Below, piece by piece: positions 2,001 through 33,044 of a stretch of 33,044 nucleotides of DNA; within the stretch, counting starts at the first letter, position 1; the number at the start of each line of letters is the position of its first letter. The stretch lies in NCBI GenBank assembly GCA_023150835.1, contig JAKLKB010000068.1, positions 1 to 33,044 of the forward strand, in the 5' to 3' direction. The notes under the pieces were generated by a model. That model was not told where the DNA came from. It worked only from the letters and a program-made list of their open reading frames with translations, and did no database searches. A program made the translations under genes and the position numbers. Origin of the DNA: Myxococcota bacterium (GTDB lineage: Bacteria > Myxococcota_C > UBA6777).

Positions 2001-4829
2001 ATGCGTTCTGATAAGCCTATCCCGTCACCGCGCCCGCACGAGGAGTCGACCTTCCAACACGCTCCCATCGACCAACTCGACCACGCGCTTGACGAATCCT
2101 CCGAACACCGACACTTTCCCACCCAAGAACGCCATCCCCCTCGCGGAACCCCTGTCGGTCGATACATCCTGCTTGAACCCGTATCCAGCGGCTCCGTCGG
2201 CACCGTCTACACCGCCTACGATCCCGAACTCGATCGCAAACTCGCCGTCAAACTCCTGCGCGTCGACCTCCATCATTACCAAGACCCCGCCGAAGCCGAA
2301 GTCCGCATCCAACGCGAAGCCCGCTCCATGGCCCGCCTCTCTCACCCCAACGTCGTCCAAGTCTATGACACGGGCCGCTTTGGCACGCAACACTTTATCG
2401 CCATGGAGTTCGTCTCAGGAAACCCCCTCAAACAATGGATGCAACAACCCCACTCCCTCCAAGAGATCCTTCAAGCCCTCCTCCAAGCTGGACGTGGACT
2501 CCAAGCCGCCCATGAAGCCGGCCTGATCCACCGCGACTTCAAACCCGCAAATGTCCTCCAACGCGAAGACGGCACCTTTTGCGTCGTCGACTTTGGCCTC
2601 GCACGCGGCAGCCTCCGTCAACCCAACAACAACGAACTCTCCACCACACCCAGCGGAAACTACGACGAGATCCCCGACGACTACAAACTCCTCGATCTCG
2701 ATATCTCGCTCACCGAACCCGGGCAGATCATGGGAACCCCAGCCTACATGGCTCCCGAACAACTCAACGGACAAGAAAGCGACGAACGCACCGACCAGTT
2801 CGCCTTTTGCGTCTCCCTCTACGAAGCCCTCTACGGCGAACGCCCTTTCTTCGGACATTCCCTCGAAGCCCGCACCCAAGCCCACCTCCAAGTCCAACAG
2901 ATCCGCAGCATCAAAGGATTTTCTGTCCCCAAATGGCTGCGCTCTCTCCTCCAACGCGGTCTCGCACCCCAACGCGAAGACCGCTTCCCCACCATGCGCC
3001 TCCTCCTCGACGAGATCGAGTCCAGCCTCCGACGACAACGCGAACACGATCGCTGGCGATGGCTCGCCTTGATCTGGCTCTTTCTCTTTGCTGTCGGACT
3101 CTCTTGGCTCGCCTTCCTCTCCCCTTCCTCTCCCTGCCAACAAGCCCACTCCCACACCCAAAAACTCTGGAACCCCACCACCCAACACGAGATCCGCACC
3201 GCTTTCCTCCAAACTCGCCTACACTACGCGCTCCCCACATGGGAACGCGCACAACAAGCCCTCTCCTCCTACGAAGACGCTTGGCGCAACCAATACACCG
3301 AAGCCTGCCAAGCCACTCACCTCCACAAAGAACAACCCCTCGCCTCCCTCGCTCTTCGCACCCAATGCCTCCATGATCGACTCCAACAATTCTCCTCTCT
3401 CGTCAGTCTATTTCGTAAAGCCGACTCCAAGATCGTCGAAGGCGCCATCCGTAGTATCTACCAACTCGATCCCCTCGACGAATGCAAAGATCTCCTCGCC
3501 CTCAAACGCACCAAACACCCCCTCCAAGACCCCAAAAGCCAACAAACCCTCCAACACCTTCACAAAGAACTTTCTGTCGTCAAAGCCCTCCATGATACGG
3601 GAAAAAGCAACGAAGCCTACGAAACATTGCTCTCTATCATACAACAAAGTCGCTCGATCTCTTATCCTCCCCTTCAAGCCGATATCCTCTACCGAAAAGC
3701 CACCCTCTTACACTTCCAAGGCAAAAACCAAGACGCCTTTGACACCGCACAACAAGCCCTCTGGATCGCCCTCCGACTCAACGATATCCGCCTCCAAGTC
3801 CTCCTTTATCTCGAACTCCACAGCATCGCCCAAGATCTCGCACGCTACCCAGATGCCGAACGCTTCGGCATGTACGCCGAATCTCTCTTGCCCCTACTCA
3901 AAGAACCCGCACTCATGCAACTCCGACTCGACCGCACTCGCGGCGTCATGGCCTTTTATCGCGGACAATACCCCCAAGCCCTCCAGATGTTCTTGCGCGC
4001 CTACAAAGCCGCCAACCGCCACCTCAACCCCACCCACCCCCAACGCGGACACATCCTCAACGCCCTCGGCGCTGCCTACCGCAAAAACAACCAACCCGAA
4101 CGCGCCATCCACTTTTACCAACGCGCCATCCACCTCACCACCCAAGCCCAAGGCCCCGACCACCCCTTCATCTCCACCATCGAAAACAACCTCGCCAACA
4201 TCTTTATGCAAAAACAACAACACCACAAAGCCCTCCAACTCCAAAAAAACGCCCTCCGACGCATCGACGGCATCGTCCCCGAAAGCCACTCCCTCTTCCT
4301 TTATCTTCTCGGCAACATGGGCATGACCTACACCGATCTCAAACGATGGAAACCTGCCAAACGCATGGTCTTTCGCGCCCACCAACTCATCCAAAAACAC
4401 CACAGCAAAGAACACCCTCGCCTCGCTGCAAGCTACAACCAGATCGGCTACTTTTACCTCGCCCAACGCCGCTACAAACGCGCCCTCCCTGCCTACCAAC
4501 ACGCTTCCGATATCTACAAAAAACGCTTCCCCAAACAAGGCCACCCACAACTCGCCGAAGCCTTATACGGACTCGCCGAAAGCCTCTTCTTTTCCCACCA
4601 ACACGAAGCCGCCAAACTCTCCGCTCTCCACGCTGAAGAACTCTTCGCACGCTTCAATATCCACGACCACTACCGCGTACGCAATCTTTTCTTGCTCGCT
4701 CACATCCACCACAAAGATCGTACACTCCGACCTCTCGCACGCCCTTTCGCGGAAAAAGCTCGCTCTTTCTATCCACACCTCCCACAAAAAGAGATCATCC
4801 CTGCGTACCTTCGCAACGTACCCCATTAA
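2001..4829 (+). CDS. Membrane Hanks-type Ser/Thr protein kinase with C-terminal TPR repeats
   Basis: AVK, HPNVV, HRDFKPANV, DFG and GTPAYMAPE. Hydrophobic segment WLALIWLFLFAVGLSWLAFL. TPR-like repeats (NALGAAY, NNLANIF, GNMGMTY, NQIGYFY). Confidence 0.92.
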   Translation: MRSDKPIPSPRPHEESTFQHAPIDQLDHALDESSEHRHFPTQERHPPRGTPVGRYILLEPVSSGSVGTVYTAYDPELDRKLAVKLLRVDLHHYQDPAEAEVRIQREARSMARLSHPNVVQVYDTGRFGTQHFIAMEFVSGNPLKQWMQQPHSLQEILQALLQAGRGLQAAHEAGLIHRDFKPANVLQREDGTFCVVDFGLARGSLRQPNNNELSTTPSGNYDEIPDDYKLLDLDISLTEPGQIMGTPAYMAPEQLNGQESDERTDQFAFCVSLYEALYGERPFFGHSLEARTQAHLQVQQIRSIKGFSVPKWLRSLLQRGLAPQREDRFPTMRLLLDEIESSLRRQREHDRWRWLALIWLFLFAVGLSWLAFLSPSSPCQQAHSHTQKLWNPTTQHEIRTAFLQTRLHYALPTWERAQQALSSYEDAWRNQYTEACQATHLHKEQPLASLALRTQCLHDRLQQFSSLVSLFRKADSKIVEGAIRSIYQLDPLDECKDLLALKRTKHPLQDPKSQQTLQHLHKELSVVKALHDTGKSNEAYETLLSIIQQSRSISYPPLQADILYRKATLLHFQGKNQDAFDTAQQALWIALRLNDIRLQVLLYLELHSIAQDLARYPDAERFGMYAESLLPLLKEPALMQLRLDRTRGVMAFYRGQYPQALQMFLRAYKAANRHLNPTHPQRGHILNALGAAYRKNNQPERAIHFYQRAIHLTTQAQGPDHPFISTIENNLANIFMQKQQHHKALQLQKNALRRIDGIVPESHSLFLYLLGNMGMTYTDLKRWKPAKRMVFRAHQLIQKHHSKEHPRLAASYNQIGYFYLAQRRYKRALPAYQHASDIYKKRFPKQGHPQLAEALYGLAESLFFSHQHEAAKLSALHAEELFARFNIHDHYRVRNLFLLAHIHHKDRTLRPLARPFAEKARSFYPHLPQKEIIPAYLRNVPH

Positions 4830-4864: not shown

Positions 4865-6037
4865 TTGAATACGATTCAACCTCAAGACTTTTTCCCAATG
4901 CTGCGCCAGATCCTCAGCCAACCTCCTTCTCCAAATGCGTGGCGCTCTCTACGCCGGCTCTTTGCGCTTTGGGCGGCTGGAGACGAAAAAGAACTCGGAC
5001 TCCAATACACACGCAACCACCTCCAGACATGGGACAACGATCTGCGCGTCACTTTCAAGATCGATCCCACCGATCCCTTCTGGACGCTCGCTCGGACGCT
5101 CGATATCAGCTATACCACCGATGCTTACACCTTCCAAGAATCGAACCTTGACGCTCAATCCCTTACTCACCTCACAGGCTTACGTATTCGGATCGATTAT
5201 TGGAATCAACTCTCTGCCTCGATGAAGAAAAAATGGAGCCATCTTCGGTCTCTCTCGCTCACGCACTGCGCACAACACTCCCGTCTCTCCTTCCAAGGCA
5301 CTGATCTCCCTCATCTTCAACGCCTCTCCCTTTCCCATTGCGATAAGCTCGAACACATCGACGATATCGAGCCGATCGCCCATCTCCAATCCCTCCGCTG
5401 CCAACGCTTGCTTCTTCTTCAACAAGCCTCTTTTCTCGCTCATCTACCCCAACTGCGCTCTCTTCACCTCCACATCCTTCCCAGTCTCCAAAGCCTCCAG
5501 CCTTTTTCTTTGTTGCCGCACCTTCAACACCTTTTCCTCGGGGGCTTCCAGACCATCCACGATCTCGCTCCCCTCGCGGCCCTCACTCAACTTCGCTCGC
5601 TTTTCCTCAGCGATACCAAGTTCATCCGCAGCCTTGAACCCCTCGTCGGTCTCCAACAACTCCGATCCCTCGAACTTCGCGGTGGACAGCGGCTCTCCGA
5701 ACTCGACATCGATCAACACCTCCCACAACTCCAACAACTCACCGCCCGTTCCGTCCCCAACATCCAACAAAAAACCATCCACAACACAACGCTTCGCGCT
5801 CTTTATCTCAGCCATCTCTACAAACTCCAAGTTCTCTCGATCTTCGATGCCCCACAACTCCAACACCTCACCCTCAAACACGCCCCTGCTCTCACCCGTT
5901 TCGAGCTCCATCACCTCCCCACCGAACTCTCGCACTTGTCCATTATCAACTCTCGCGATGGGCGTCTCGATGTCCAATCCAACCGACACCAAGAAACTCA
6001 AGAACACCTCCAACGCATCGCACGCATCGGCCTTTAG
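4865..6037 (+). CDS. Leucine-rich repeat protein
   Basis: Repeated LxxLxLxx units (LPHLQRLSLSHC, LPQLRSLHL, LTQLRSLFLS, LQQLRSLEL). TTG start preceded by TAAGGAG at 4851-4857. Confidence 0.82.
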   Translation: MNTIQPQDFFPMLRQILSQPPSPNAWRSLRRLFALWAAGDEKELGLQYTRNHLQTWDNDLRVTFKIDPTDPFWTLARTLDISYTTDAYTFQESNLDAQSLTHLTGLRIRIDYWNQLSASMKKKWSHLRSLSLTHCAQHSRLSFQGTDLPHLQRLSLSHCDKLEHIDDIEPIAHLQSLRCQRLLLLQQASFLAHLPQLRSLHLHILPSLQSLQPFSLLPHLQHLFLGGFQTIHDLAPLAALTQLRSLFLSDTKFIRSLEPLVGLQQLRSLELRGGQRLSELDIDQHLPQLQQLTARSVPNIQQKTIHNTTLRALYLSHLYKLQVLSIFDAPQLQHLTLKHAPALTRFELHHLPTELSHLSIINSRDGRLDVQSNRHQETQEHLQRIARIGL

Positions 6038-7908: not shown

Positions 7909-8034
7909 AAAAAAGCCGTGTTCGTGAGCATTCAAGCGACAGGGTCGCTGTCTTGAGATATCTGTGGTCTCTTCGTTGATATGGGGTCAAGGGGCGGCAG
8001 TCTATGGCGGGGTATGGGGTAACACCCCACAAAA
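7909..8034 (+). repeat. Family A: ~125-bp dispersed hairpin element, copy 1
   Basis: AAAAGCCGTGTTCG...CAAGCGA...GATATGGGGTCAAGGGG...GGCGGGGTATGGGGTAACACCCCACAAAA. Confidence 0.85.
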
Positions 8035-8080
8035 CCCCATCGAACGGCCTAAGTCCACTGGCGATCGAGCCATTGCATGG

Positions 8081-11047
8081 TCAAAACAGATCTTCGATCA
8101 TCTTGGCGGTGTGTGTGGCATCTTGGGCCGCATCCCAGAAAAATTGCTGCATCACAAAACCTGTTTTCTTGAGCTGGATCGTCACCCGTTTTCCTTGGGG
8201 CAGACGCAAGGTCAAAGGCGTTTTTCCTCTCGACTTTTTGTCGACAAAGACACGGACGCCCGCAGGCTGTGTGGTGATCCGAAGCGTTGCGAACGCAACA
8301 ACGGGCCTCTCCACAGGAGCGGGTTGAGGAGAAGGTTCACGTCTTGCTACGGGTTCTTCGCGCCTTGCTGCGGGTTCTTCGCGTCTTGCTGCGGGTTCTT
8401 CGGATCGTTCAGCAGGGGCACGATGCTGCGGCCCTTTTCGTTTGGCTCGAACAGGGCGTTTGTGGATCTTGTGATATTTGGGGGGGCTGCGTCGTGGACT
8501 CTGTGCTGCGGGTTCGTCTTCTTCGTCCTCTTTTTCGTCTTGTTTGGTTTCGGAGGTTTTATCAGACGGAGAAGTCGGATCTTGGGGGAGGTCTTTGATG
8601 CGAGACGGAGGAGAAAGAGGTCGTGCGTCTGGATTCTCTGTACCCGCATCGGAAGAGGCGGTAGGAAGGGTGGAGTCGACAGCCTTCGGAGCAATCGACG
8701 AAGGTGTTCGCGATCGGGTAGGTGAGGTCGGAGCTCCCCCATCCAAGGGAGACACAGAAGGTTTCGGATGCTGCGGTGCCTTCGCATCTTGTCTTGTGGT
8801 CGGGTCCGATCGGGGAAGATCTTTTTTGGCGGATGATTGGGTATCTTGTGCTGGTTGCCCACGCAATCGCGCCAGTCGACCGAGCAGGCTTTCTCCTTGG
8901 TAAGCGAGCCACAGATGCAACAACAGCACCGTCGCCACAACCCCCGACAGAAAGATCACCACGACGCCCACCCAAGATATCCCGCTTGCTTTTGACGAGG
9001 CGGTTTGTGCGTCATGTGGAATGGCAGCGATATCTTGCAACGAAGGCGAAGATGGATGGATCGAACGCACAGGAACGGCCTTTCGCTCACGCAGCTTTTC
9101 GGCGGTATCCATCGGAGCGTGCAAGGGCTTGGAGGCGTTGCGGAGTTCTTCTTGCCATGCGAGGGGATCGGCTTCGAGGTCGACTTGGGCCAACAGCACA
9201 TCGCTCGAAGAGTGCCGATCTTGCGGATCATTCGCGGATTGCGGAGCTTTGAGACGCGGATCTTCGGGCGACGAAGAGTCTTGCAGGCGGCTGTTTTCTT
9301 CGCGCAAGTAAGCGGGGATCGCCAAAGGCTCCATGACATAAGTCGGGACTTCTTCTTCATCAAGAAACGCATCGCTCGGGGCTTCGAGAGAGGTCAACAA
9401 GTTTTGTAGCGCAGGATCACGCAACTGGATCTTGTTGCGTTCTTTTGAAGAAAGAGCCGCCGCGAGTTGCTCGCTAGAGGGAAGGGGGATCTCACGAGGA
9501 GCAGCGATAGGCGGGAAAAGGATCGCATCACTCGAACTCGGCGGACGCAGCGAATCTCCCGAAGGCGTCCCAAGAGAGTCGGAAGATGCGGCGTGTTGTA
9601 GCTGTTCGGAGGACGAAGTACCTTTGTGCGAAGCGTCGCGAAGCGGCGTAGGGACGGGCGTAAACAAAGCCTCTTCTGCGTGTTCGTGAGGACCGGCTTT
9701 GTTGGCTTGAAGACGTGCGGTCTCACCTGCGCTGGGGTGGGTTTGGCGTTTGAGCGTATGTGTACCCTCAAACGCCGCTCCCATCGCCACCAAGCCCCCA
9801 GATGACTTCTCTCTTTTTCCTTGCAAGGATGCGGGACGAGCGGGCGACGGCAAAGGCGGGTGCATCGCAAAAGCTGACGGGGCCACCTGTGCGCCAAACG
9901 CCGAAGAGCCGATCGGCACAAGCGCAGGGTGGGCAGCAAGCATCACCCCACCCGTCGAGGCACCTGTCGGAGCGGCTTGGCTCTCCACAAAGGACATATC
10001 GCCTTGAAATGCGCTGTCTTCGAAGTCTTCGGACTCTGACGTATGCGCAAATACCGCACTGTGAACGGTCCCTTCCATCGCACGTTTGATCGCCTCAAGA
10101 AATCCCGTCACAGAGTCAAAACGATCTTCGGGTCGTTTCTCGATCGCGGTCATCACGGCTTGTTCGAGCGCAGAAGGAAACGGATGATCCGGCCAGATAT
10201 CCGAAAAGGGCGGAGGCATCGCAGAGATGTGCCGTCGAATCAGCTCAGGCATCGTCGGTGGATCCGCAGGATCGAGAAACGGCGATTGCCCCACCAACAG
10301 CTCGTACAAAATAATCCCAAGCGAATACAGATCGGCTCGTGCGTCGACGTCCTTGTTTCGGCACTGTTCGGGAGACATATACGCAGGCGTTCCCACAGGA
10401 GACTGCGTCAGTTGAAGCGAACGATCCCAATCGACGGGCTTTGCAACACCAAAGTCGAAGATCTTCACGAAGTACGGGTCATCTTTGCGTTGGATCAAAA
10501 AGACGTTAGACGGCTTGAGATCACGGTGGATAATCCCCTTGCGATGGGCCACTTCCATCGCTTCGCAGATCTGGCGAAAAACGTGCAACGCCAGATCGAC
10601 CCCCGGCACATCATCCAGTTCAAGTAAGAAATCTTCGAGTGTGATACCTTGTAGGTACTCCATCACATAGAAGTATCCGAGCTTTGGCTCTTCGCCAAAG
10701 TCATCATATACCCGCACAATGTGCTCATTTTCACGAGAAACGCTGGAAGTGGTTTGTACTTCTCGGCGAAAACGCTTCTCCATCCCGGGTTGCTTGAGTG
10801 CTTCGGACTTGATCACCTTGATCACACGCTCGCGATCCACATCCAACCAGATATGTTCCGCAAGATAAACCTTGCCAAAGCCACCCTCTCCAAGTTGCCG
10901 CAACAACCGATATTTCCGCGCCACCAGCGACAAAGGGAACTGACAGCGCGGACAAAAGGTAAACTCACCCGACTCCAATAGCTCACGCACTTGGGAGGTG
11001 TCAGAACCACAACTTGGGCAATTGGAATGATACAGTTCGCGAGACAT
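8081..11047 (-). CDS. Membrane Ser/Thr protein kinase with N-terminal zinc ribbon and C-terminal PEGA domain
   Basis: CPSC...CPRC, LGEGGFGKVY, HRDLKPSNV, DFG and GTPAYMSPE. Long Ser/Pro-rich linker, TM segment WVGVVVIFLSGVVATVLLLHLWL, PEGA-like LRITTQPAGVRVFVD...GKTPL. ATG 11047 preferred over 11071. Confidence 0.9.
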   Translation of the reverse strand: MSRELYHSNCPSCGSDTSQVRELLESGEFTFCPRCQFPLSLVARKYRLLRQLGEGGFGKVYLAEHIWLDVDRERVIKVIKSEALKQPGMEKRFRREVQTTSSVSRENEHIVRVYDDFGEEPKLGYFYVMEYLQGITLEDFLLELDDVPGVDLALHVFRQICEAMEVAHRKGIIHRDLKPSNVFLIQRKDDPYFVKIFDFGVAKPVDWDRSLQLTQSPVGTPAYMSPEQCRNKDVDARADLYSLGIILYELLVGQSPFLDPADPPTMPELIRRHISAMPPPFSDIWPDHPFPSALEQAVMTAIEKRPEDRFDSVTGFLEAIKRAMEGTVHSAVFAHTSESEDFEDSAFQGDMSFVESQAAPTGASTGGVMLAAHPALVPIGSSAFGAQVAPSAFAMHPPLPSPARPASLQGKREKSSGGLVAMGAAFEGTHTLKRQTHPSAGETARLQANKAGPHEHAEEALFTPVPTPLRDASHKGTSSSEQLQHAASSDSLGTPSGDSLRPPSSSDAILFPPIAAPREIPLPSSEQLAAALSSKERNKIQLRDPALQNLLTSLEAPSDAFLDEEEVPTYVMEPLAIPAYLREENSRLQDSSSPEDPRLKAPQSANDPQDRHSSSDVLLAQVDLEADPLAWQEELRNASKPLHAPMDTAEKLRERKAVPVRSIHPSSPSLQDIAAIPHDAQTASSKASGISWVGVVVIFLSGVVATVLLLHLWLAYQGESLLGRLARLRGQPAQDTQSSAKKDLPRSDPTTRQDAKAPQHPKPSVSPLDGGAPTSPTRSRTPSSIAPKAVDSTLPTASSDAGTENPDARPLSPPSRIKDLPQDPTSPSDKTSETKQDEKEDEEDEPAAQSPRRSPPKYHKIHKRPVRAKRKGPQHRAPAERSEEPAARREEPAARREEPVARREPSPQPAPVERPVVAFATLRITTQPAGVRVFVDKKSRGKTPLTLRLPQGKRVTIQLKKTGFVMQQFFWDAAQDATHTAKMIEDLF

Positions 11048-11168
11048 CGTCTTTCCGAGCGTTCGCAACAACGCGATGGTTTACGATCGTGTGACAAAAC
11101 ACCCAATCCAAAAGAAACCCACTCTAGAAGACACCATCCCTACCGTCAAGAGGACGCATCCTTCCGCC

Positions 11169-19138: not shown

Positions 19139-19207
19139 TCCCTCGCAACTTGGATTCGGCTGGAGAATGGCACTCCGACCTTCGACACGATCTGTGGAGA
19201 GTTGTTT

Positions 19208-21724
19208 ATGAACAATCCAACGAAAGAGGAACAAAGCTCTGGCGTTTTATTTGGCAACTACCAAGTCATCGCCAAACTTGCAACCGGCGGGATGGCTGAG
19301 TTGTTCCTCGCCAAACAACGGGGTCTTGCAGGGATCAGCAAGACCGTTGTCATCAAATGCGTCCTCCCGCACCTCGCCTCCAGCGACGACTTCGTCCAGA
19401 TGTTTCTCGATGAAGCTCGCGTTGCCACCCATCTCCAACACCCCAACATCGTTCAAATCTTCGAAGTCGGCCAAGTCCGCAACGTCTACTACATCGCCAT
19501 GGAATACATCCGTGGCCTCGACCTCAAACGCATCCGAAAACAAGTCTACAGCATCAAAGAATTCCAACAAGATCCTCCCTTTAACCTCTTCGCTGGCATC
19601 ATCTCCCAAGCCGCCGCAGGACTCCACTACGCCCACTGCGCCACCGACGAAATGGGCAGCCCCCTCGGCATCATCCACCGCGACGTCAGCCCCAACAACC
19701 TCCTGATCTCCTTCAACGGCGTCGTCAAGATCGTCGACTTCGGTGTCGCCAAAGCCGCCACCCAAGAACACCGCACCCGCGCTGGTATGCTCAAAGGACG
19801 ACTCAGCTATATGTCCCCCGAGCAGATCTCTGGACAGCCCGTCAAACCTTCGTCCGATATCTTCTCCCTCGGGATCGTCCTCTACGAGATGGCCACCAAC
19901 CGACGCCTCTTCAAACGCGAAAACGAAGCCGAAACCGTCCAAGCCGTCCTCAAATCTCCCATCGCTCCCCCCGAAAAATACTACCCCTCCATCCCCCCCG
20001 AGTTCAGCCGCATCATCATGAAGTGCATGGAACGCGACGAAAGCAAACGCTACCAAGCCGCCGAAGAACTCCGCCTTGATCTTGAACACTACATGCACTC
20101 CACCGAACATTACAGCCCTCACAAGATCTCCGAGTTTCTCGACCGGCACTTCAGCGACGACAAAAAACAATCTTCCACAGGTGTCCTCGCCAACCCCTTT
20201 AACCAAGCCGACCTCCAATACCTCGCCTACCGTACAGGCCAGTTCGGCAACGCTCCCACCGGCAGCCATCCCAGCCACCCCGGTGCCCTCGATCGCAACA
20301 ACACCTCCGCAAGCTTCTCCGATGTCGGGGCCGATTCTTCCTTTGGCTACTTTACCCGCGATGAATCCGGCGTCAAAGGCGTCGTCTTCGATCCACCTAC
20401 CAAAAGCCGCACCTTTCTCTGGGTCTTCCTCTTGCTCTTCGTTGGCCTCGGAGCCGGCCTTGCCGTCGCCCAATGGGAACAGATCAACCGCTGGCTTTCC
20501 AATGCACCCCCTCCCCAACCACCCGCCCCTCGCGTCGATATCGCAAAACGCAAAAAACTACAGGCCGAACACCAAGCCAAGATCAACGACTTCCTCGTCA
20601 ACCGAGCCTTTCAAAAGGCCCGCGCTTATCTCGCTGATCTCCAAAACTCTCCCGATGCTGCTCTCCTTGGCTCTTGGCTCAAAGACACCCAACAAAGCGT
20701 CGAACTCGAATCCAGCCTCGCCAGTGTCGAACTCTTTTACGGACAAAAAAATTACGATGACGCCTTGGCTTTGCTCAAACGCCTCTTGATGGACTACTCC
20801 GGCAGCGACCAAGTCCGCGAATGGTACCAAAAAGTTCAAAAAGCCAAAGAAAACGCAGGCAAAGAACCCGTCGCAACCAAACCTCCCGAAACTCGCGACG
20901 ATCCCGAAGAATCCTCCTCTAGCAAACGCCGCAAACGATGGCGACGACGCCCTCCACCAAAACGCCGAAAAACCAAACCCACCAAAGTCGCCAACGTCGA
21001 ACCCGCCGAAGTCACTCCGCCCGTTCGCCCCGATCCACCCGCAACCGAGGAAAAAGGCACCGTCTTCGTCAATTCCACACCCGCTGGCCGCGTCGAACTC
21101 GATGGCCGCCTGATCGGTTATACCCCCATCAACGGCCAAAAGATCAAAGTCGGTACCTATCGCCTCACCGTCCGACGACCCGGATATCTCACCAGCTCCC
21201 GCTCCATCACCGTCACCACCTCCTCACCCGTCGAACTCAACATCCCTCTCGAAGCCATCGAAGTCCCTCGCGCTGCTCCCCCTCGCACCGAACCTCGCAC
21301 CGAACCTCGCACCGAACCCGACCCCCGCCCTGCACCCTCTTCCGATGAACCCAAAGCCAAGATGGACTTCTCCAATATCCAACTCCCTCGACAAAAAACC
21401 ATCCGACTCCTCATCACCGACCCTCGCGGACTCGTCGCCAACCAATACACCGACGAACACGCCGACCTCTGCAAACAGATCGAAGACGAAGCCGCCCGGG
21501 TCCTTGGACCCTCCTTCTCCGTCAAAGGCGTCACCCTCGCTTGGCAAAAGTTCGTCCGACAACAAGCCACCGAACAAACCACCCAAAGTATGCGCTTTTA
21601 CCCCCGCGCTGCCGCCTTCGTCATCTACAACAACCTCACTCGTGGACGCGACCGCAGCCGTGTCGCACAACTCCTCGTCCTCTACCAACGCAAAAATCGC
21701 TTCCGCCAATACGCCAACAAATAA
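19208..21724 (+). CDS. Membrane Ser/Thr protein kinase with helical/TPR-like region and PEGA domain
   Basis: LATGGMAELF, FLDEAR, HRDVSPNN, DFG and KGRLSYMSPEQ (myxobacterial-type). TM segment FLWVFLLLFVGLGAGLAVA. PEGA-like GTVFVNSTPAGRVELDG...GYTP...GTYRLTVRRPGY. Confidence 0.92.
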   Translation: MNNPTKEEQSSGVLFGNYQVIAKLATGGMAELFLAKQRGLAGISKTVVIKCVLPHLASSDDFVQMFLDEARVATHLQHPNIVQIFEVGQVRNVYYIAMEYIRGLDLKRIRKQVYSIKEFQQDPPFNLFAGIISQAAAGLHYAHCATDEMGSPLGIIHRDVSPNNLLISFNGVVKIVDFGVAKAATQEHRTRAGMLKGRLSYMSPEQISGQPVKPSSDIFSLGIVLYEMATNRRLFKRENEAETVQAVLKSPIAPPEKYYPSIPPEFSRIIMKCMERDESKRYQAAEELRLDLEHYMHSTEHYSPHKISEFLDRHFSDDKKQSSTGVLANPFNQADLQYLAYRTGQFGNAPTGSHPSHPGALDRNNTSASFSDVGADSSFGYFTRDESGVKGVVFDPPTKSRTFLWVFLLLFVGLGAGLAVAQWEQINRWLSNAPPPQPPAPRVDIAKRKKLQAEHQAKINDFLVNRAFQKARAYLADLQNSPDAALLGSWLKDTQQSVELESSLASVELFYGQKNYDDALALLKRLLMDYSGSDQVREWYQKVQKAKENAGKEPVATKPPETRDDPEESSSSKRRKRWRRRPPPKRRKTKPTKVANVEPAEVTPPVRPDPPATEEKGTVFVNSTPAGRVELDGRLIGYTPINGQKIKVGTYRLTVRRPGYLTSSRSITVTTSSPVELNIPLEAIEVPRAAPPRTEPRTEPRTEPDPRPAPSSDEPKAKMDFSNIQLPRQKTIRLLITDPRGLVANQYTDEHADLCKQIEDEAARVLGPSFSVKGVTLAWQKFVRQQATEQTTQSMRFYPRAAAFVIYNNLTRGRDRSRVAQLLVLYQRKNRFRQYANK

Positions 21725-28340: not shown

Positions 28341-28464
28341 AAAAACCGTGTTCGCACCCGCCCAAGCGAGAGCATTGCCTGTTTGAAAAACGCTCGATCT
28401 CTTCGCCGATACGGGGTCAAGGGTGCCGCGACCTATGGCGGGGCGTGGGGTGGAACCCCACAAA
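28341..28464 (+). repeat. Family A element, copy 2
   Basis: AAAAACCGTGTTCG...CAAGCGA...GTTTGAAAAACGCT...GATACGGGGTCAAGGG...GGCGGGGCGTGGGGTGGAACCCCACAAA. Confidence 0.88.
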
Positions 28465-28481
28465 GCCGAACAGACGGCAGC

Positions 28482-28643
28482 ATACGATATCCAGAAGATG
28501 TGTGCGCCATGTCGAGGCGATCCGCCGATATCCAAAAGATGTGTGCGCCATGTCGAGGCGATCCGCTGTAATTGCCCTGTTCTTGGTCTGCCACAAGGGG
28601 CAGCCCCTACGTTTTACCATCACACCACAGACGGACTTCGTCT
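28482..28643 (-). repeat. Family B element, copy 3, with internal 41-bp duplication
   Basis: Begins ATACGATATCC. Reverse complement contains GTGTGATGGTAAAACGTAGGGGCTGCCCC. Bases 28485-28525 recur at 28526-28566. Confidence 0.78.
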
Positions 28644-28657
28644 CAACGCTCTTCGTC

Positions 28658-30697
28658 TTATAACTCTGCCGCCAACAAGGTTCCTTGTTGAATTGCGCGT
28701 TTGGCATCTAATTCTGCCGCCACATCCGCACCACCGATCAAGCGTACCTCTTTTCCTGCCGCTTGCAAGGGGGCCAACAACGCACGCTGCGGCTCTTGTC
28801 CTGCGCACAAGATCACATGATCTACCGCCAGTACTTGAGCCTTTCCCTTCACGCTCAGATGCAGCCCCTGATCGTCGATCTTTTCGTACACACAGTCCGA
28901 CAGCATCGTCACTTGCTTGTTGCGCAACGTCGTCCGATGAATCCATCCCGTCGTCTTACCCAAGCGCTCCCCCAACTTCCCGCCTGATCGCTGGCACAAA
29001 TAGATCTGCCGCGCAGGGGCCGACACCACCGCCTCTTTCAACGCCCCCGGGCGCGAATGGCTCATATCCACGCCCCATTCATCCATATACGCCGCGATAT
29101 CTTGCGACGTCGGCGTCTCTTCTTTCCGATGCGTCAAATACTCCGCCACATCAAACCCGATCCCGCCCGCTCCAACAATCGCCACCTTCTCCCCCACAGG
29201 CCGATGCCCTTGCAAGACATCCACATAAGACAGCACTTTTGGATGATCTACCCCTTGGATACGGACTTCGCGTGGGACCACGCCCGTTGCCAACACGATC
29301 ACCTCGTACTCTCCGCTCTGCAAAAATGCCGCGCTCACCCGCTCTCCCAAACGCACTTCCACACCCGTCAAGCGCAACTGCGTTTGAAAATACCGCAACG
29401 TCTCCGAAAACTCCTCTTTGCCCGGGATCTGCCGCGCCATCAAAAACTGCCCACCGATCTGTTCTCCCGCCTCAAACAACGTCACCTTGTGACCGCGCTT
29501 CGCCGCTGTCGTCGCACACGCCAATCCCGCTGGACCCGCACCTACCACCGCGATCCGACGCGCCCTTGTCGTCGCCTTGATCGTGATCTCTGTCTCATAA
29601 CACGCCAGCGGATTCACCAAACAACTGCATCGCTTGTTTTGAAAGATGTGATCCAAACAAGCCTGATTGCACGCGATGCACGTATTGATCTCTTCTTCTC
29701 GACCTTCTCTTGCCTTTTTTACCCAATCAGGATCCGCCAAAAACGGCCTTGCCATCGAGATCAGATCCGCATCTCCCGCCGCCAACACCGACTCCGCAAC
29801 CTCTGGCATATTGATCCGATTCGAGGCCACCAGCGGAATCGACACCTCGCCCCGCAACTTCCGCGTCACCCATGTAAACGCCGCTCGCGGAACCATCGTC
29901 GCGATCGTCGGCACTCGCGCCTCATGCCAACCGATCCCCGTGTTGAGGATCGACGCCCCCGCTTCTTCGATCGCTTTCCCCAACGTGACGACTTCCTGCC
30001 ATGTGCTACCATCTGGAACCAGATCCAACATCGACAACCGATAAATAATCAAAAACTCCCGTCCCACCGCCTCTCGAATCTGTCGCACGATCTCCACAGG
30101 AAAACGCATCCGCTTCTCGTACTCTCCACCCCATTCATCGCCGCGTTTGTTCGTATGTTGTGCAAGAAACTGGTTGATCAAATAACCTTCCGATCCCATC
30201 ACCTCCACACCATCATAACCCGCTTCTTTCGCTCGCACCGCACAGTTCACAAAGTCCCCTATCGTCCGCCTCACTCCACCATTCGACAATGCTCTCGGGC
30301 GAAACGGACTGATCGGCGCCTTGATCGCACTCGGTGCCACCGCCAACGGCGAATAACTGTACCGACCCGCATGCAAGATCTGCATACAGATCACTCCTCC
30401 CTCCCGATGCACCGCGTCTGTCACATAACGATGCTTCCGCACCTCCCACCCATTCGACAACCGCGCCGCAAACGGCTTCACCCATCCCGCAAAGTTCGGG
30501 GCCACCCCTCCCGTCACGATCAACCCCGCTTCCCCCGCTGCTCTCGCCGCAAAATACTCCCCCAACTTCTTCAAACCAAACCACTCTTCTTCCAAACCCA
30601 CGTGCATCGAACCCATCATCGCCCGATTCTTCAACGTCACATGACCCACTTCCAACGGGGCCAACAAATGCGGGTACTTCGCGTTTCCTCCAACCAT
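28658..30697 (-). CDS. fadH: NADPH-dependent 2,4-dienoyl-CoA reductase
   Basis: LKNRAMMGSMHVGLEE, QILHAGRY, GYDGVEVMGSEGYLINQF, GIGWHEARVPTIA, the 4Fe-4S motif CIACNQACLDH...C, GAGPAG, GAGGIGFD and ELDAKRAI. Start ATG 30697. Confidence 0.96.
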   Translation of the reverse strand: MVGGNAKYPHLLAPLEVGHVTLKNRAMMGSMHVGLEEEWFGLKKLGEYFAARAAGEAGLIVTGGVAPNFAGWVKPFAARLSNGWEVRKHRYVTDAVHREGGVICMQILHAGRYSYSPLAVAPSAIKAPISPFRPRALSNGGVRRTIGDFVNCAVRAKEAGYDGVEVMGSEGYLINQFLAQHTNKRGDEWGGEYEKRMRFPVEIVRQIREAVGREFLIIYRLSMLDLVPDGSTWQEVVTLGKAIEEAGASILNTGIGWHEARVPTIATMVPRAAFTWVTRKLRGEVSIPLVASNRINMPEVAESVLAAGDADLISMARPFLADPDWVKKAREGREEEINTCIACNQACLDHIFQNKRCSCLVNPLACYETEITIKATTRARRIAVVGAGPAGLACATTAAKRGHKVTLFEAGEQIGGQFLMARQIPGKEEFSETLRYFQTQLRLTGVEVRLGERVSAAFLQSGEYEVIVLATGVVPREVRIQGVDHPKVLSYVDVLQGHRPVGEKVAIVGAGGIGFDVAEYLTHRKEETPTSQDIAAYMDEWGVDMSHSRPGALKEAVVSAPARQIYLCQRSGGKLGERLGKTTGWIHRTTLRNKQVTMLSDCVYEKIDDQGLHLSVKGKAQVLAVDHVILCAGQEPQRALLAPLQAAGKEVRLIGGADVAAELDAKRAIQQGTLLAAEL

Positions 30698-30882
30698 CCT
30701 TCGCTCCTTCGCTTCGCTTCCTTCGGTGAACCTTGGCTCATCGTTGTACCCAAACGCCCCTCCCCCGACAAGGCCCCTTCTCCACACCACCACAAGCCAT
30801 CCGCTTCTTTTCGGGTTTAGGCCGCGTGTTGTGGGTTTTGTTTTTGGCCGCTCTTTGCGTTTGTTTTGGCTGCTCTTTCGGC

Positions 30883-31005
30883 TTTGTGGGGTGCCACCCC
30901 ACGCCCCGCAAGGGAACTTCGTCCCCTTGACCCCGTATCGGCGAACAAAGCATCCTTTTTCAAGCCAACAACACCATCGATTGGACGGGTGCGAACACGC
31001 CTTTT
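30883..31005 (-). repeat. Family A element, copy 3 (inverted)
   Basis: Reverse complement AAAAGGCGTGTTCGCACCCG...CTTGAAAAAG...GATACGGGGTCAAGGGGACGAAGTTCCCTTGCGGGGCGTGGGGTGGCACCCCACAAA. Confidence 0.88.
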
Positions 31006-31205
31006 CAAACCCATCGCCACGCCTCTCTGACCTCCACGAACACCCCTCCTCAAAAAAACAGGTGCAAAGCTCCAAGACTTTGTGTAGAGTCCAATCATTC
31101 ATCCACCCAAGCCCCCCTCCACTTCAACGAAGCCCATACATACGTCCACGACCAAACACCTCTCCGAACTCTTTGCACGAAAACTCGTCTTTGCCTGCTC
31201 CAACT

Positions 31206-31236
31206 TCCCCCCGTTCACGGGGGGATTGAGGGGGGG
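31206..31236. repeat. G/C-run palindromic REP-like hairpin, second copy
   Basis: TCCCCCCGTTCACGGGGGGATTGAGGGGGGG. Confidence 0.7.
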
Positions 31237-31297
31237 AGAAAAAAAAAGGCGATCAAGACCGACTCTACGAGGTTTCCACCTTAACAAGGCGCGTATG

Positions 31298-31344
31298 GGG
31301 GCAGCCCCTACATCGTTCGTGTACACAAGGGGCGGATTTCGTAT
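31298..31344 (-). repeat. Family B half element
   Basis: Reverse complement ATACGAAATCCGCCCCTTGTGTACACGAACGATGTAGGGGCTGCCC matches the left arm and GTAG core. Confidence 0.62.
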
Positions 31345-31418
31345 CACCTCTTCCCTTGTGCAACCTCATCGGCTAGAACGAAAAAGACACTTTTTCCAAA
31401 CCGTAGAGGAAAACGATC

Positions 31419-32813
31419 ATGGCTATCACACGCCCCACCCATCCTGCGATCCCACAGACAACCTCGACAACTTCGACAACCTCTGCTGCCCCGAGACCGA
31501 CAGGCTCCACAGCCCCAGCGTCCCCGACGACGGCACATCCAACCACGACGCCCCCAACTACGGCAGCAGCGCTCCCTGCGGCCCAAGATCAATTTTCTCC
31601 AGAGCTTGGTTCGAGTTTTGTTCACCAGCTTCTTGGGTTAGATCGAGACGCAGACGGACGGATCAGCCGCCAAGAGTTTGCCACAGGCCAACCCACCCTT
31701 GAACGCATCAGCCAAGACGGGCGCCCCCAAAATCGCGCCGAACAAAGCGTATTTCGCGCCATGATGGACGCTTATCGGAGTACCCCAAGCCAGCCCACAC
31801 CGACGAGTCCATCACCCACGACTCCAAGTACTCCCGTATCTCCGTCCCTGACAAGCCCCAACGCCTCCGCAACCAACGAAAACGACCCCTTGCTCTCTTA
31901 CAGCATCCAAGATGGACGCCTAGTCGCGCTCGCTCCTCATGCGGGGACATCGATCCCACCGCTATTTTCGACGCCTCATCTCGATGCAAACCAAGGGGGG
32001 CTGCCCTCCACCTTACTGGCGACTCCTACAGCCCGCGTCATACACGGCGATGACCCGGGAGATTTCTACTGCGAACACATGTTCTTTGGCGCACAGATGG
32101 CGGCTTCTGCACCCGAAAGCAGCATCCAAACCAACGCCCAAGGCGAAAAGCTTGTGGGCTTCTTGCACGTTCCTTCGGATGCTTGGACGCAACAAGCCTC
32201 CTCCGCAGGTTACACCCAAGAACAACGTCACGCAGGAACCCGCCAAGTGATCGGTGCTGCGTTGCGCGGATACGCCGACCAGATCGCCGCGCAACAAACA
32301 GACGGGTCGATCCGTATGATGTTAACGGGTTATGACCAGTTCATGTCTGTTCGCAACAACCCAACGGGCGACTTTGTCTCTCATCGCGAAAACCTTGATG
32401 CGAGTATGCGCGCTGCGTTTGGCGATCGGTTGCTTACCCCCCAAGGCTCGCCCGTATCGATCGAGCCGCCCCCTTCCACCGACACGCACTCCTACCGCTA
32501 CACGATCCGAGGCGAAGACGGAACCCCCCGCGAGATCGAGCTTACAGCGTCTCGCTTTCCTGTGGACGATACCACGATCAATCCGCAGTCTTCGACTTCG
32601 ATCCAACGATCCATTTCCCGATATGCCCCCCACGCCGTGATCTCGATGGGTGTCGCAGGCTCGGGTTCCTACAAGGCCGAACACCGCGCCGATAGCGGCG
32701 GCCTGTTGCGCACCTCAGACAGCGCACAACACAACGAATCCGCCACCGACACCCTCCGCCTGCGTGATAACTTCTCCCTCGCACGCGCCATCCACGCCGG
32801 ACAACGACCCTAA
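31419..32813 (+). CDS. EF-hand protein with putative circularly permuted pyroglutamyl peptidase I (C15)-like domain
   Basis: Thr/Pro-rich N-terminus and EF-hand DRDADGRISRQE. Motifs DDPGDFYCEHMFF, VGFLHVP, MMLTGYDQF..VRNNPT and PHAVISMGVA...AEHRA. GAGG precedes the ATG. Confidence 0.75.
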   Translation: MAITRPTHPAIPQTTSTTSTTSAAPRPTGSTAPASPTTAHPTTTPPTTAAALPAAQDQFSPELGSSFVHQLLGLDRDADGRISRQEFATGQPTLERISQDGRPQNRAEQSVFRAMMDAYRSTPSQPTPTSPSPTTPSTPVSPSLTSPNASATNENDPLLSYSIQDGRLVALAPHAGTSIPPLFSTPHLDANQGGLPSTLLATPTARVIHGDDPGDFYCEHMFFGAQMAASAPESSIQTNAQGEKLVGFLHVPSDAWTQQASSAGYTQEQRHAGTRQVIGAALRGYADQIAAQQTDGSIRMMLTGYDQFMSVRNNPTGDFVSHRENLDASMRAAFGDRLLTPQGSPVSIEPPPSTDTHSYRYTIRGEDGTPREIELTASRFPVDDTTINPQSSTSIQRSISRYAPHAVISMGVAGSGSYKAEHRADSGGLLRTSDSAQHNESATDTLRLRDNFSLARAIHAGQRP

Positions 32814-32922
32814 CTCCTCGCCCCACCGAAGCCAACGCCCCCGACGCACCTCGACCAACACGCGAAACATGCCTCGCACCCGCCCGAGCCACCCGCCCCC
32901 AAACTCGAAAACACCTCACAAC

Positions 32923-33044
32923 AAAAAAGCCGTGTTCGTAGCACTTCAAGCGACACAGATGTTGGTTTGAAAAACGCTGTTGGCCCCGTCCATACGGGGT
33001 CAAGGGAGCCGCGCTCCCTGCGGGGCGTGGGGCAGCGCCCCATA
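32923..33044 (+). repeat. Family A element, copy 4 (reaches window edge)
   Basis: AAAAAAGCCGTGTTCG...CAAGCGA...GTTTGAAAAACGCT...ATACGGGGTCAAGGGAGCCGCGCTCCCTGCGGGGCGTGGGGCAGCGCCCCATA. Confidence 0.88.

Follow-up and report, generated by a model that had tools for sequence, protein, structure and literature searches.

A putative circular permutant of the pyroglutamyl peptidase I (C15) fold with a conserved Cys-His-Glu triad in a Myxococcota genome

The stretch of DNA analyzed here (the window) is an entire contig, C239, of 33,044 nucleotides (nt) from the genome of a Myxococcota bacterium (7.56 Mb in 239 contigs, 93% complete). The open reading frame (ORF) P0001, at 31419..32813 on the forward strand, starts with ATG and encodes a protein of 464 amino acids (the feature entry counts the stop codon). 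We conclude with high confidence that this protein is a homologue of pyroglutamyl peptidase I (peptidase family C15) whose chain order has been circularly permuted. Its residues ~189-464 very probably form a permuted domain of the C15 fold in which the catalytic triad is intact. The first-pass annotation of the window had proposed a natural permutant on the basis of four C15 motif blocks, all of which are present in the translation: DDPGDFYCEHMFF with Cys218, VGFLHVP with His250, MMLTGYDQFMSVRNNPT from residue 300 (nt 32316), and PHAVISMGVAGSGSYKAEHRA with Glu421. Its nucleotide positions, obtained as 31419+3(r-1) for residue r, are arithmetically right, and the halves are swapped as it had claimed: the Cys and His blocks precede the LTGY/NPT and Glu blocks, whereas in canonical C15 they follow them. 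The gain in similarity upon reordering, the conservation of the triad and a single confident AlphaFold2 domain all favor that proposal, as described below.

The reordering gain is visible only by profile-profile comparison. We compared a core-only profile of 114 relatives with a canonical pyroglutamyl peptidase profile by hhalign. In native order the score is 69.8 (E 9.6e-10) over 90 columns, covering canonical positions 3-102, i.e. one half of the enzyme, whereas swapping the halves at ORF residue 293 raises the score to 103.6 (E 5.7e-15) over 161 columns and extends the coverage to canonical 3-173. In global mode, the swapped profile aligns over 197 columns, with family positions 2-276 on canonical 1-216 of 218 (score 90.2, E 1.2e-16). 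Five column shuffles used as controls score 12.4-17.4 with E of at least 0.12, and a reversal scores 16.3 (E 0.17). Taken alone, the first-half block (residues 189-296) aligns with canonical 129-174 (Prob 88, E 3.2e-6) and the second-half block (residues 297-464) with canonical 3-102 (Prob 96.9, E 1.6e-10). An independent profile comparison in native order places family positions 171-295 on canonical 4-84 (Prob 94.7, E 6.2e-8). When the cut point was scanned, the maximal score formed a plateau at ORF residues 259-299, in the stretch separating the His block from LTGY, and the new chain ends fall at canonical ~128/129, between a helix ending in '...AL' and the 'GIPA' strand.

The swapped order recurs throughout the family. 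We built a canonical hidden Markov model (HMM) from enzymes retrieved with the source genome's own canonical Pcp, and regarded a half as detectable at 2 bits or more. Both halves are detectable in 111 of 219 members, and in all 111 they stand in swapped order, none showing the canonical one; in the remaining 108, one half or none was detected with this model. A profile of 20 members searched against PDB sequences gives 24 matches at E ≤ 10. Pyroglutamyl peptidases account for 21 of them, namely ranks 1-20 and the final match, with a best E of 4.4e-4, and the aligned stretches are again swapped: family 141-166 on chain 1-26, 234-263 on 49-79, and 46-104 on 122-172. Individual relatives yield the same pattern, as P0073 aligns to NCBIfam models with residues 4-54 on 135-178 and 94-125 on 1-32, and P0188 (205 aa) aligns to 5Z47 with residues 83-162 on 5-78 and 2-52 on 133-180 (E 2.1e-5). 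PF01470, the Pfam model of C15, matches 10 of 20 relatives at E ≤ 10, and 6 of 12 short members exceed its 22.7-bit cut-off as partial matches. By BLASTP, the short member P0191 aligns with the canonical Pcp of the source genome only over the equivalent of the N-terminal half (E 0.003).

We built a tree from 32 reordered members and 32 canonical enzymes, the latter a narrow sample because all were retrieved with one query. A single branch separates the two sets (ultrafast bootstrap 100; SH-like approximate likelihood ratio test, SH-aLRT, 100), a split that is consistent with a single origin of the permutation. The window protein is placed in a derived subclade of the family tree. Among proteins that could represent tandem C15 intermediates, three longer ones were found, none with two PF01470 domains listed, which is weak evidence.

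In the reordered alignment, Glu421, Cys218 and His250 fall on the invariant canonical residues Glu81, Cys144 and His168, respectively, which we take to act in canonical C15 as the residue orienting the histidine, the nucleophile and the base. The corresponding codons lie at 32679..32681 (Glu421, within Y-K-A-E-H-R-A-D), 32070..32072 (Cys218, within G-D-F-Y-C-E-H) and 32166..32168 (His250, within G-F-L-H-V-P), all on the forward strand, and we predict the same three roles for them. As the first-pass annotation anticipated, homologues keep the triad: among the non-gap rows of 219 family representatives, Cys218 is found in 207/208, His250 in 212/213 and Glu421 in 193/208. Other positions conserved at 90% or more in this set include Gly214, Tyr217, His220, Gly247, Phe248, Pro252, Arg270, Gly304, Asn314, Pro315, Asp384, Gly411 and Asn451. 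At 22 of the 58 canonical positions that are conserved at 85% or more, the permuted family has the same majority residue, and these include Glu81, Cys144, His168, G10, N20-P21, G70, P132, G140 and F166.

Aromatic and hydrophobic residues of the canonical C15 motifs form the pyroglutamate (pGlu) pocket. In the alignment of these motifs, F11 corresponds to Tyr305 (62%), F14 to Phe308 (70%), Y142 to Phe216 (60%) and L143 to Tyr217 (95%). Immediately beside the nucleophile, canonical N145 is replaced by Glu219 (82%) and Q146 by His220 (95%).

The AlphaFold2 model of ORF residues 150-464, calculated with the 114-sequence alignment, is one compact domain with a mean predicted local distance difference test (pLDDT) score of 93.3 and a predicted template modelling (pTM) score of 0.88 (model number + 149 = ORF residue). 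In ORF numbering, its elements are a strand at 205-210 (E56-61), a helix at 217-229 (H68-80), a strand at 246-252 (E97-103), a long helix at 267-290 (H118-141), the LTGY strand at 298-305, helices at 315-337 (including H174-188), an inserted hairpin at 355-380 (E206-215 and E221-231), a helix at 395-402, strands at 406-413 and 418-421 (E269-272), and a last helix at 453-461. This order is presumably the canonical C15 topology shifted circularly. Cys218 is placed at the N-terminus of a helix, His250 inside a strand, and Glu421 at the end of a strand. When the model was compared by VIA-align with 48,161 solved chains, ranks 1 and 2 were pyroglutamyl peptidases, aligned over the C-terminal half of the model only: 3rnz_A with Z 5.7 and a root-mean-square deviation (rmsd) of 3.2 A over 115 residues (model 148-315 on chain 2-129), and 2ebj_B with Z 5.5 and rmsd 3.1 A over 112 residues (model 150-315 on chain 1-123). 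The aligned ranges are those predicted from sequence.

Several observations weigh against the assignment to C15. PF01470 gives no match at E ≤ 10 to the window protein, either whole or as separate halves, and the two partial matches in inverted order that the first-pass annotation expected were thus not obtained. The only single-sequence match is to NCBIfam NF009676, with residues 214-282 on profile 139-201 of 215 (E 6.8e-4), and its 19.7 bits compare with a cut-off of 199; the protein lies under every curated family threshold. The family has no model of its own in the Pfam and NCBIfam versions used. When self-concatenated sequences were searched with the canonical HMM by hmmsearch, short fragments were reported rather than one full-length match, and the doubled sequence scored higher than the native one in only 4 of 220 cases. 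The expectation of a better C15 match after reordering was therefore borne out by the profile-profile comparison and failed in hmmsearch. Several canonical invariants are replaced, namely Asn145 (by Glu), Ser136, Ala139 and Arg82. On the structural side, the Z scores of 5.7 and 5.5 are below the level regarded as clear (8) and are tied with those of kinesin-like motors (Z 5.0-5.4, rmsd 4.6-4.9). Foldseek against the PDB returned no match at E ≤ 1e-3, its top rows being tyrosine phosphatases with TM ~0.2, and no pyroglutamyl peptidase was among the best 50 after its top 1000 chains were re-aligned by VIA. A model of the Cys/His half only (pLDDT 88.5) likewise has no pyroglutamyl peptidase among its best 50 structural matches; the best Z of 4.1 is helical noise, and this result is uninformative rather than negative. 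All of the aligners used depend on chain order, so that at most one half can align. Because they score under the threshold of the curated C15 model and depart from its motif order, we regard these proteins as a sister family of permuted members inside the C15 fold.

We propose that residues ~189-464 would constitute one globular domain, a natural circular permutant of the peptidase C15 fold. The chain would have been opened in the loop between the canonical helix and the 'GIPA' strand, at canonical ~128/129, and the ancestral C-terminal helix would now join the ancestral first strand directly, the two meeting at about ORF residues 290-298. The first half of the core, residues 189-296 (31983..32306, forward strand), corresponds to canonical ~129-216, and the permuted chain would begin there with a strand, the Cys218 helix, the His250 strand and the long helix. 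The second half, residues 297-464 (32307..32810, forward strand), corresponds to canonical 1 to ~128 and runs through the first strand LTGY, the NPTGDFV helix, PVDD, the MGV strand, the Glu strand and the last helix, so that the LTGY/NPT and Glu421 half would close the chain. Relative to canonical C15, residues ~325-378 (32391..32552, forward strand) are an insertion, a helix plus a beta-hairpin that falls in a gap of the canonical profile and is missing from short family members (205-260 aa), e.g. P0188.

In such a domain Cys218 as nucleophile, His250 as base and Glu421 as the residue orienting the histidine would meet as they do in canonical C15, and the protein is probably an active Cys-His-Glu hydrolase, judging from the conservation of these residues. 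It would most likely take pyroglutamate, or another small blocking group of that kind, off peptide N-termini; this assignment follows from the homology and from the aromatic residues retained around the nucleophile. We name pyroglutamyl peptides as the substrate only tentatively, at somewhat less than even confidence. The change of Cys-Asn to Cys-Glu-His, together with the family-specific Arg270, Asp384, His438 and Asn451, implies that the substrate may differ. The N-terminal 190 residues appear to be accessory, comprising a disordered Thr/Pro-rich stretch, an EF-hand-like module, a linker and three strands, and possibly serve calcium control or targeting. Altogether, the altered neighbors of the nucleophile, the accessory modules and the coexisting canonical gene possibly leave room for a different, perhaps extracellular, role.

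A word-indexed protein search with residues 150-464 as the query (E ≤ 1e-3) found 114 relatives which, where named, are mostly from metagenome-assembled genomes (MAGs) of Myxococcota, Myxococcales or Deltaproteobacteria. Seventeen of the 114 carry the JGI name 'pyrrolidone-carboxylate peptidase', and one has a precomputed PF01470 match. An exhaustive search of 1.84 billion cluster representatives (50% identity clusters) gave 202 family clusters at E ≤ 1e-3, 167 at ≤ 1e-10 and 84 at ≤ 1e-30. Among the 150 matches listed, 139 match the core in a single stretch (~model 40-315, ORF 189-464), whereas in the other 11, which are short or partial sequences of 206-362 aa, the match is split in two. In species-representative genomes, 28 loci were found, nearly all in MAGs labelled Myxococcota or Deltaproteobacteria. 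At least 27 of 401 genomes of one Myxococcota-type phylum carry the permuted gene, and the small phylum to which the window belongs has it in 2 of its 6 genomes. Plasmid and phage collections gave no match, and the window protein and its 66%-identical relative P0005 were not found in the ESM Atlas.

It is possible, though on the unlikely side, that the permuted domain is an exported or delivered effector or toxin module, acting not on ordinary pyroglutamyl peptides but, for instance, on a specific protein N-terminus or on an amide of the cell envelope or of prey, with the N-terminal region providing for secretion, targeting and extracellular folding that depends on calcium. A crude hydropathy rule assigns a hydrophobic segment at the N-terminus to 11 of 170 full-length members; several of these, e.g. 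that of P0093, are plain Sec-type signals with the core immediately behind them. The domain is fused to LysM in P0108 and lies downstream of a patatin phospholipase in P0183, and it occupies the extreme C-terminus of seven long proteins (P0131, P0132, P0150, P0183, P0099, P0096 and P0087). EF-hand-like loops occur in the window protein and in P0131. Such a role would also be in line with the altered residues next to the nucleophile, with the retention of a canonical C15 gene in the source genome, and with the presence of pyroglutamyl-peptidase domains among listed toxin domains (PMC3482391). However, the window protein and 159 of the 170 members have no hydrophobic signal, and no neighbor such as an immunity gene is conserved across the 28 loci (blastp 1e-8; antisense ORFs in these GC-rich loci disturbed the picking of genes). 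The lack of a match in the phage and plasmid records and the retained aromatic residues of the canonical pocket motifs also speak against an effector. As to the P0183 fusion (1354 aa, metagenomic), the patatin-like phospholipase spans 502-693 and the permuted C15 domain 1065-1331; the patatin region also resembles CBASS and anti-phage lipase models.

A bolder form of the effector account, which we consider an improbable speculation, is that the permutation created a catalytic C15 cassette whose N-terminus is free, so that signal peptides, linkers, calcium-binding modules or large delivery regions can be placed ahead of it. The window protein would then be a calcium-dependent effector peptidase, exported by a Myxococcota-like bacterium that is predatory or host-associated, and would unblock or cleave specific N-termini of prey or host proteins instead of recycling pGlu peptides. 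Because the window protein has no signal peptide, its export might in that case use a non-Sec route.

The opposite possibility, that the protein is a cytoplasmic housekeeping pyroglutamyl peptidase which was permuted by happenstance and does the same job as canonical Pcp, seems rather unlikely to us. The conserved triad and the many conserved residues of the pocket motifs would fit it, as would the name already given to 17 relatives by the JGI pipelines. Among five other carrier genomes, four (one of them only 64% complete) have no canonical PF01470 match at E ≤ 1e-3, so that the permuted gene could replace the canonical one there. Nevertheless, the source genome holds one canonical C15 gene (Pcp, 149 bits), which makes the permuted gene a second, distinct one, and G006, alone among the five other carriers, also has both forms. 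The N-terminal extensions are long and variable, with the Cys located 15 to 718 residues from the N-terminus (median 90), and some members carry the Sec signals or the LysM and patatin fusions described above. The replacement of the invariant Asn after the nucleophile by Glu-His, and the patchy distribution across the Myxococcota-type phylum, likewise speak against it.

That the domain is a catalytically dead binding or scaffolding derivative of C15 is very improbable. No curated model recognizes the window protein and 36 of the 58 canonical invariants are not kept, but the triad is among the best conserved positions across the 219 representatives, which is the pattern expected from selection on catalysis. 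A chance resemblance of motifs, or an artefact of assembly or gene calling, might be suspected from the weak single-sequence searches and from the contig end 231 nt away inside a repeat, but is already refuted as far as the analysis allows and retains a negligible probability: shuffled and reversed profiles score 12-17 against 103.6, all 111 informative relatives, which come from many separate assemblies, have the swapped order, the gene recurs beside the same neighbors in a same-genus genome, and one RNA-library contig is identical to the window over the entire ORF.

Returning to the gene, an in-frame stop precedes the first start codon, so that an upstream extension of the ORF is impossible, and the window protein and P0005 have a MAIT/MAIS N-terminus in common. 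A Shine-Dalgarno-like GAGG, read from the sequence, lies at 31406..31409 on the forward strand, 9 nt upstream of the ATG. A scan of 30600-33044 revealed no sigma-70-like promoter, and Rfam, promoter and terminator scans near the ORF gave nothing notable. Residues 1-56 (31419..31586, forward strand) are of low complexity, rich in Thr, Pro, Ser and Ala, and have no hydrophobic segment resembling a signal peptide; within the first 45 residues, the Kyte-Doolittle maximum is 0.03 (10-aa window) and the fraction of Pro, Thr, Ser, Ala and Gly is 0.59. They are followed by a helical module at residues ~57-125 (31587..31793, forward strand) with a canonical-looking EF-hand-like loop, DRDADGRISRQE, at residues 75-86 (31641-31676, forward strand). 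Pfam EF-hand_5 (E 0.026) and EF-hand_1 (E 0.16) match at residues 74-88, both under their cut-offs. The module is present in 17 of the 219 family representatives and the loop motif in 11. A Pro/Thr/Ser linker and three low-confidence strands sit ahead of the catalytic core. The strands lie within residues 160-186 (31896..31976, forward strand; AlphaFold2 E11-15, E18-22 and E34-37; pLDDT of the block 66-78) and correspond to nothing in the canonical C15 profile.

The same-genus genome G001 keeps the gene order of type III glutamine synthetase, a DUF3352-like gene, a 2,4-dienoyl-CoA-reductase-like fadH and the permuted gene. Among the genes flanking the permuted ORF, none for toxin delivery or immunity was recognized. 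A 1591-nt contig from the RNA library of one activated-sludge sample covers 31294-32884 without differences and is compatible with a monocistronic transcript; since such libraries may contain DNA, the contig is no proof of one. The fadH-like ORF (28658-31102, reverse strand, 814 aa) matches Oxidored_FMN from residue 146, and its same-genus orthologue has 688 aa; the late start of the match and the shorter orthologue imply that this ORF is probably over-extended at its 5' end. Trimming it leaves ~700 nt of repeat-filled intergenic region ahead of the permuted gene. We considered a recent acquisition of the permuted gene, given its weaker third-position GC skew, and rejected it; the same-genus orthologue is unremarkable among its neighbors.

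A full-length gene for an FHIPEP (FlhA/SctV-type) protein (778 bits) is located at G000:C131:35691-37727 (L033), and Flagellin_N and VipB have no match in the 93%-complete source genome. FHIPEP without flagellin suggests a non-flagellar type III system. A tie between such a system and the permuted gene was rejected, as FHIPEP occurs in 348 of the 401 phylum genomes and in 26 of the 27 carriers (a tally that includes the unpublished genome G202) and hence discriminates nothing.

The intergenic regions of the window contain a repeat of ~125 nt, at 30875-31010, 28341-28470, 7911-8036 and, in reverse orientation, 32925-33042. In the genome it has 535 blastn matches (~71 per Mb), 218 of them near full length, with both orientations equally frequent and a median identity of ~76%; a first count placed it on 188 of 239 contigs. 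Copies in inverted orientation flank the permuted ORF, and the contig ends inside one of them, 231 nt from the ORF. The repeat is abundant in G000 and in the same-genus genome G002; no copy was detected in G001, nor in three same-family genomes. Its copies do not share a strong consensus RNA fold, and Rfam gives no match to it. A second, composite repeat at 31165-31365, directly upstream of the ORF, has 344 matches in the genome. RNA-library contigs cover it at a summed depth of 137-783 in three of four runs, as opposed to 3-18 over the ORF, a difference for which copy number could account. At 31239, within a run of G and A, some contigs differ in length by 1 nt. In the spacer downstream of fadH, a 41-nt unit is duplicated in tandem at 28485-28566, in perfect register and with 98% identity.

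The genes of the window also show an extreme strand asymmetry. Third-codon-position GC skew is -0.50 to -0.79 for genes on the forward strand and +0.28 to +0.72 for those on the reverse strand, and these opposite values imply that, regardless of which way a gene points, synonymous sites are rich in C on the forward DNA strand. The contig as a whole has a GC skew of -0.295; over 184 contigs longer than 10 kb the median absolute skew is 0.13, and 40 exceed 0.2. A same-genus genome has a weaker form of the asymmetry. The sole window gene with almost no skew (third-position +0.09) is a Ser/Thr kinase-PEGA gene at 8081-11071 on the reverse strand, which could mark a recent inversion or acquisition. 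It is one of three genes for eukaryote-like Ser/Thr kinases within 33 kb (2001-4829, 8081-11071 and 19202-21724), one with tetratricopeptide repeats and two with PEGA domains, and a leucine-rich repeat protein is encoded at 4865-6037.

The family provides a clear natural circular permutation in a catalytic cysteine peptidase fold, comprising a few hundred clusters of apparently single origin, and some genomes hold the permuted and the canonical genes together. It may serve as a test case of how an active site assembled from distant chain segments survives rewiring. It is also a warning for annotation: tools that depend on chain order, such as Pfam and Foldseek, miss permuted C15 domains or report fragments, and where relatives do bear the name 'pyrrolidone-carboxylate peptidase', the rearrangement goes unmentioned. 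The changed neighbors of the nucleophile and the fusion partners make the family a possible starting point for new omega-peptidase specificity. It remains a rearrangement of a known fold and opens no long-standing question. In agreement with the first-pass annotation, which knew of no described C15 permutant, our literature search found no description of one.

Among systems already described, pyroglutamyl-peptidase domains are listed with the toxin domains of PVC-type and polymorphic toxin systems (Zhang et al. 2012, PMC3482391), where they are C15-type C-terminal modules of large proteins, as in P0131, P0132, P0150 and P0183. The terms 'circular permutation' and 'circularly permuted' are absent from the first 300,000 of the 357,715 characters of that article. 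A further parallel comes from ESM Atlas clusters of 227-258 aa, mostly from Pseudomonadota, that combine PF27118 'PA0049_N' (Pfam 38.1) with a partial PF01470 match. The cluster nearest by features to the distant permuted member P0185 has PF27118 in 44% of its members and PF01470 in 12% (score 0.84; a lead only), and a second such cluster lies near P0050, both leads scoring 0.82-0.84. An 'N-terminal domain' ahead of a partial C15 match is how Pfam would see a permuted C15 protein, and PF27118 may already cover the Cys/His half of such proteins. The articles retrieved for PA0049 concern, by their titles, transcript or biofilm studies or an unrelated topic.

At the level of fold only, the model also resembles the methylthioadenosine/S-adenosylhomocysteine (MTA/SAH) nucleosidases, futalosine hydrolase and purine nucleoside phosphorylases, which belong to the same broad alpha/beta fold class: model 148-315 aligns with their residues ~1-138 at Z 4.2-5.3 and rmsd 3.1-3.5. 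These enzymes have no sequence relationship to the window protein and lack the Cys-His-Glu triad.

The closest relative is canonical pyroglutamyl peptidase I (MEROPS C15, PF01470, TIGR00504), to which the window core is homologous over the whole domain once the order is corrected. Solved canonical structures include 3RNZ/1AUG from Bacillus amyloliquefaciens, 2EBJ from Thermus thermophilus, and 5Z47, listed as a pyrrolidone-carboxylate peptidase. The two families have the motifs LTG[FY]..F, NP[ST], LPV, G-x-A, G..C and GF.H.P in common. The permuted family differs from canonical C15 by the circular shift itself, by the ~50-residue insertion in long members and by long N-terminal extensions, and, around the active site, by Glu-His in place of the invariant Asn after the Cys and by its own Arg270, Asp384, His438 and Asn451.

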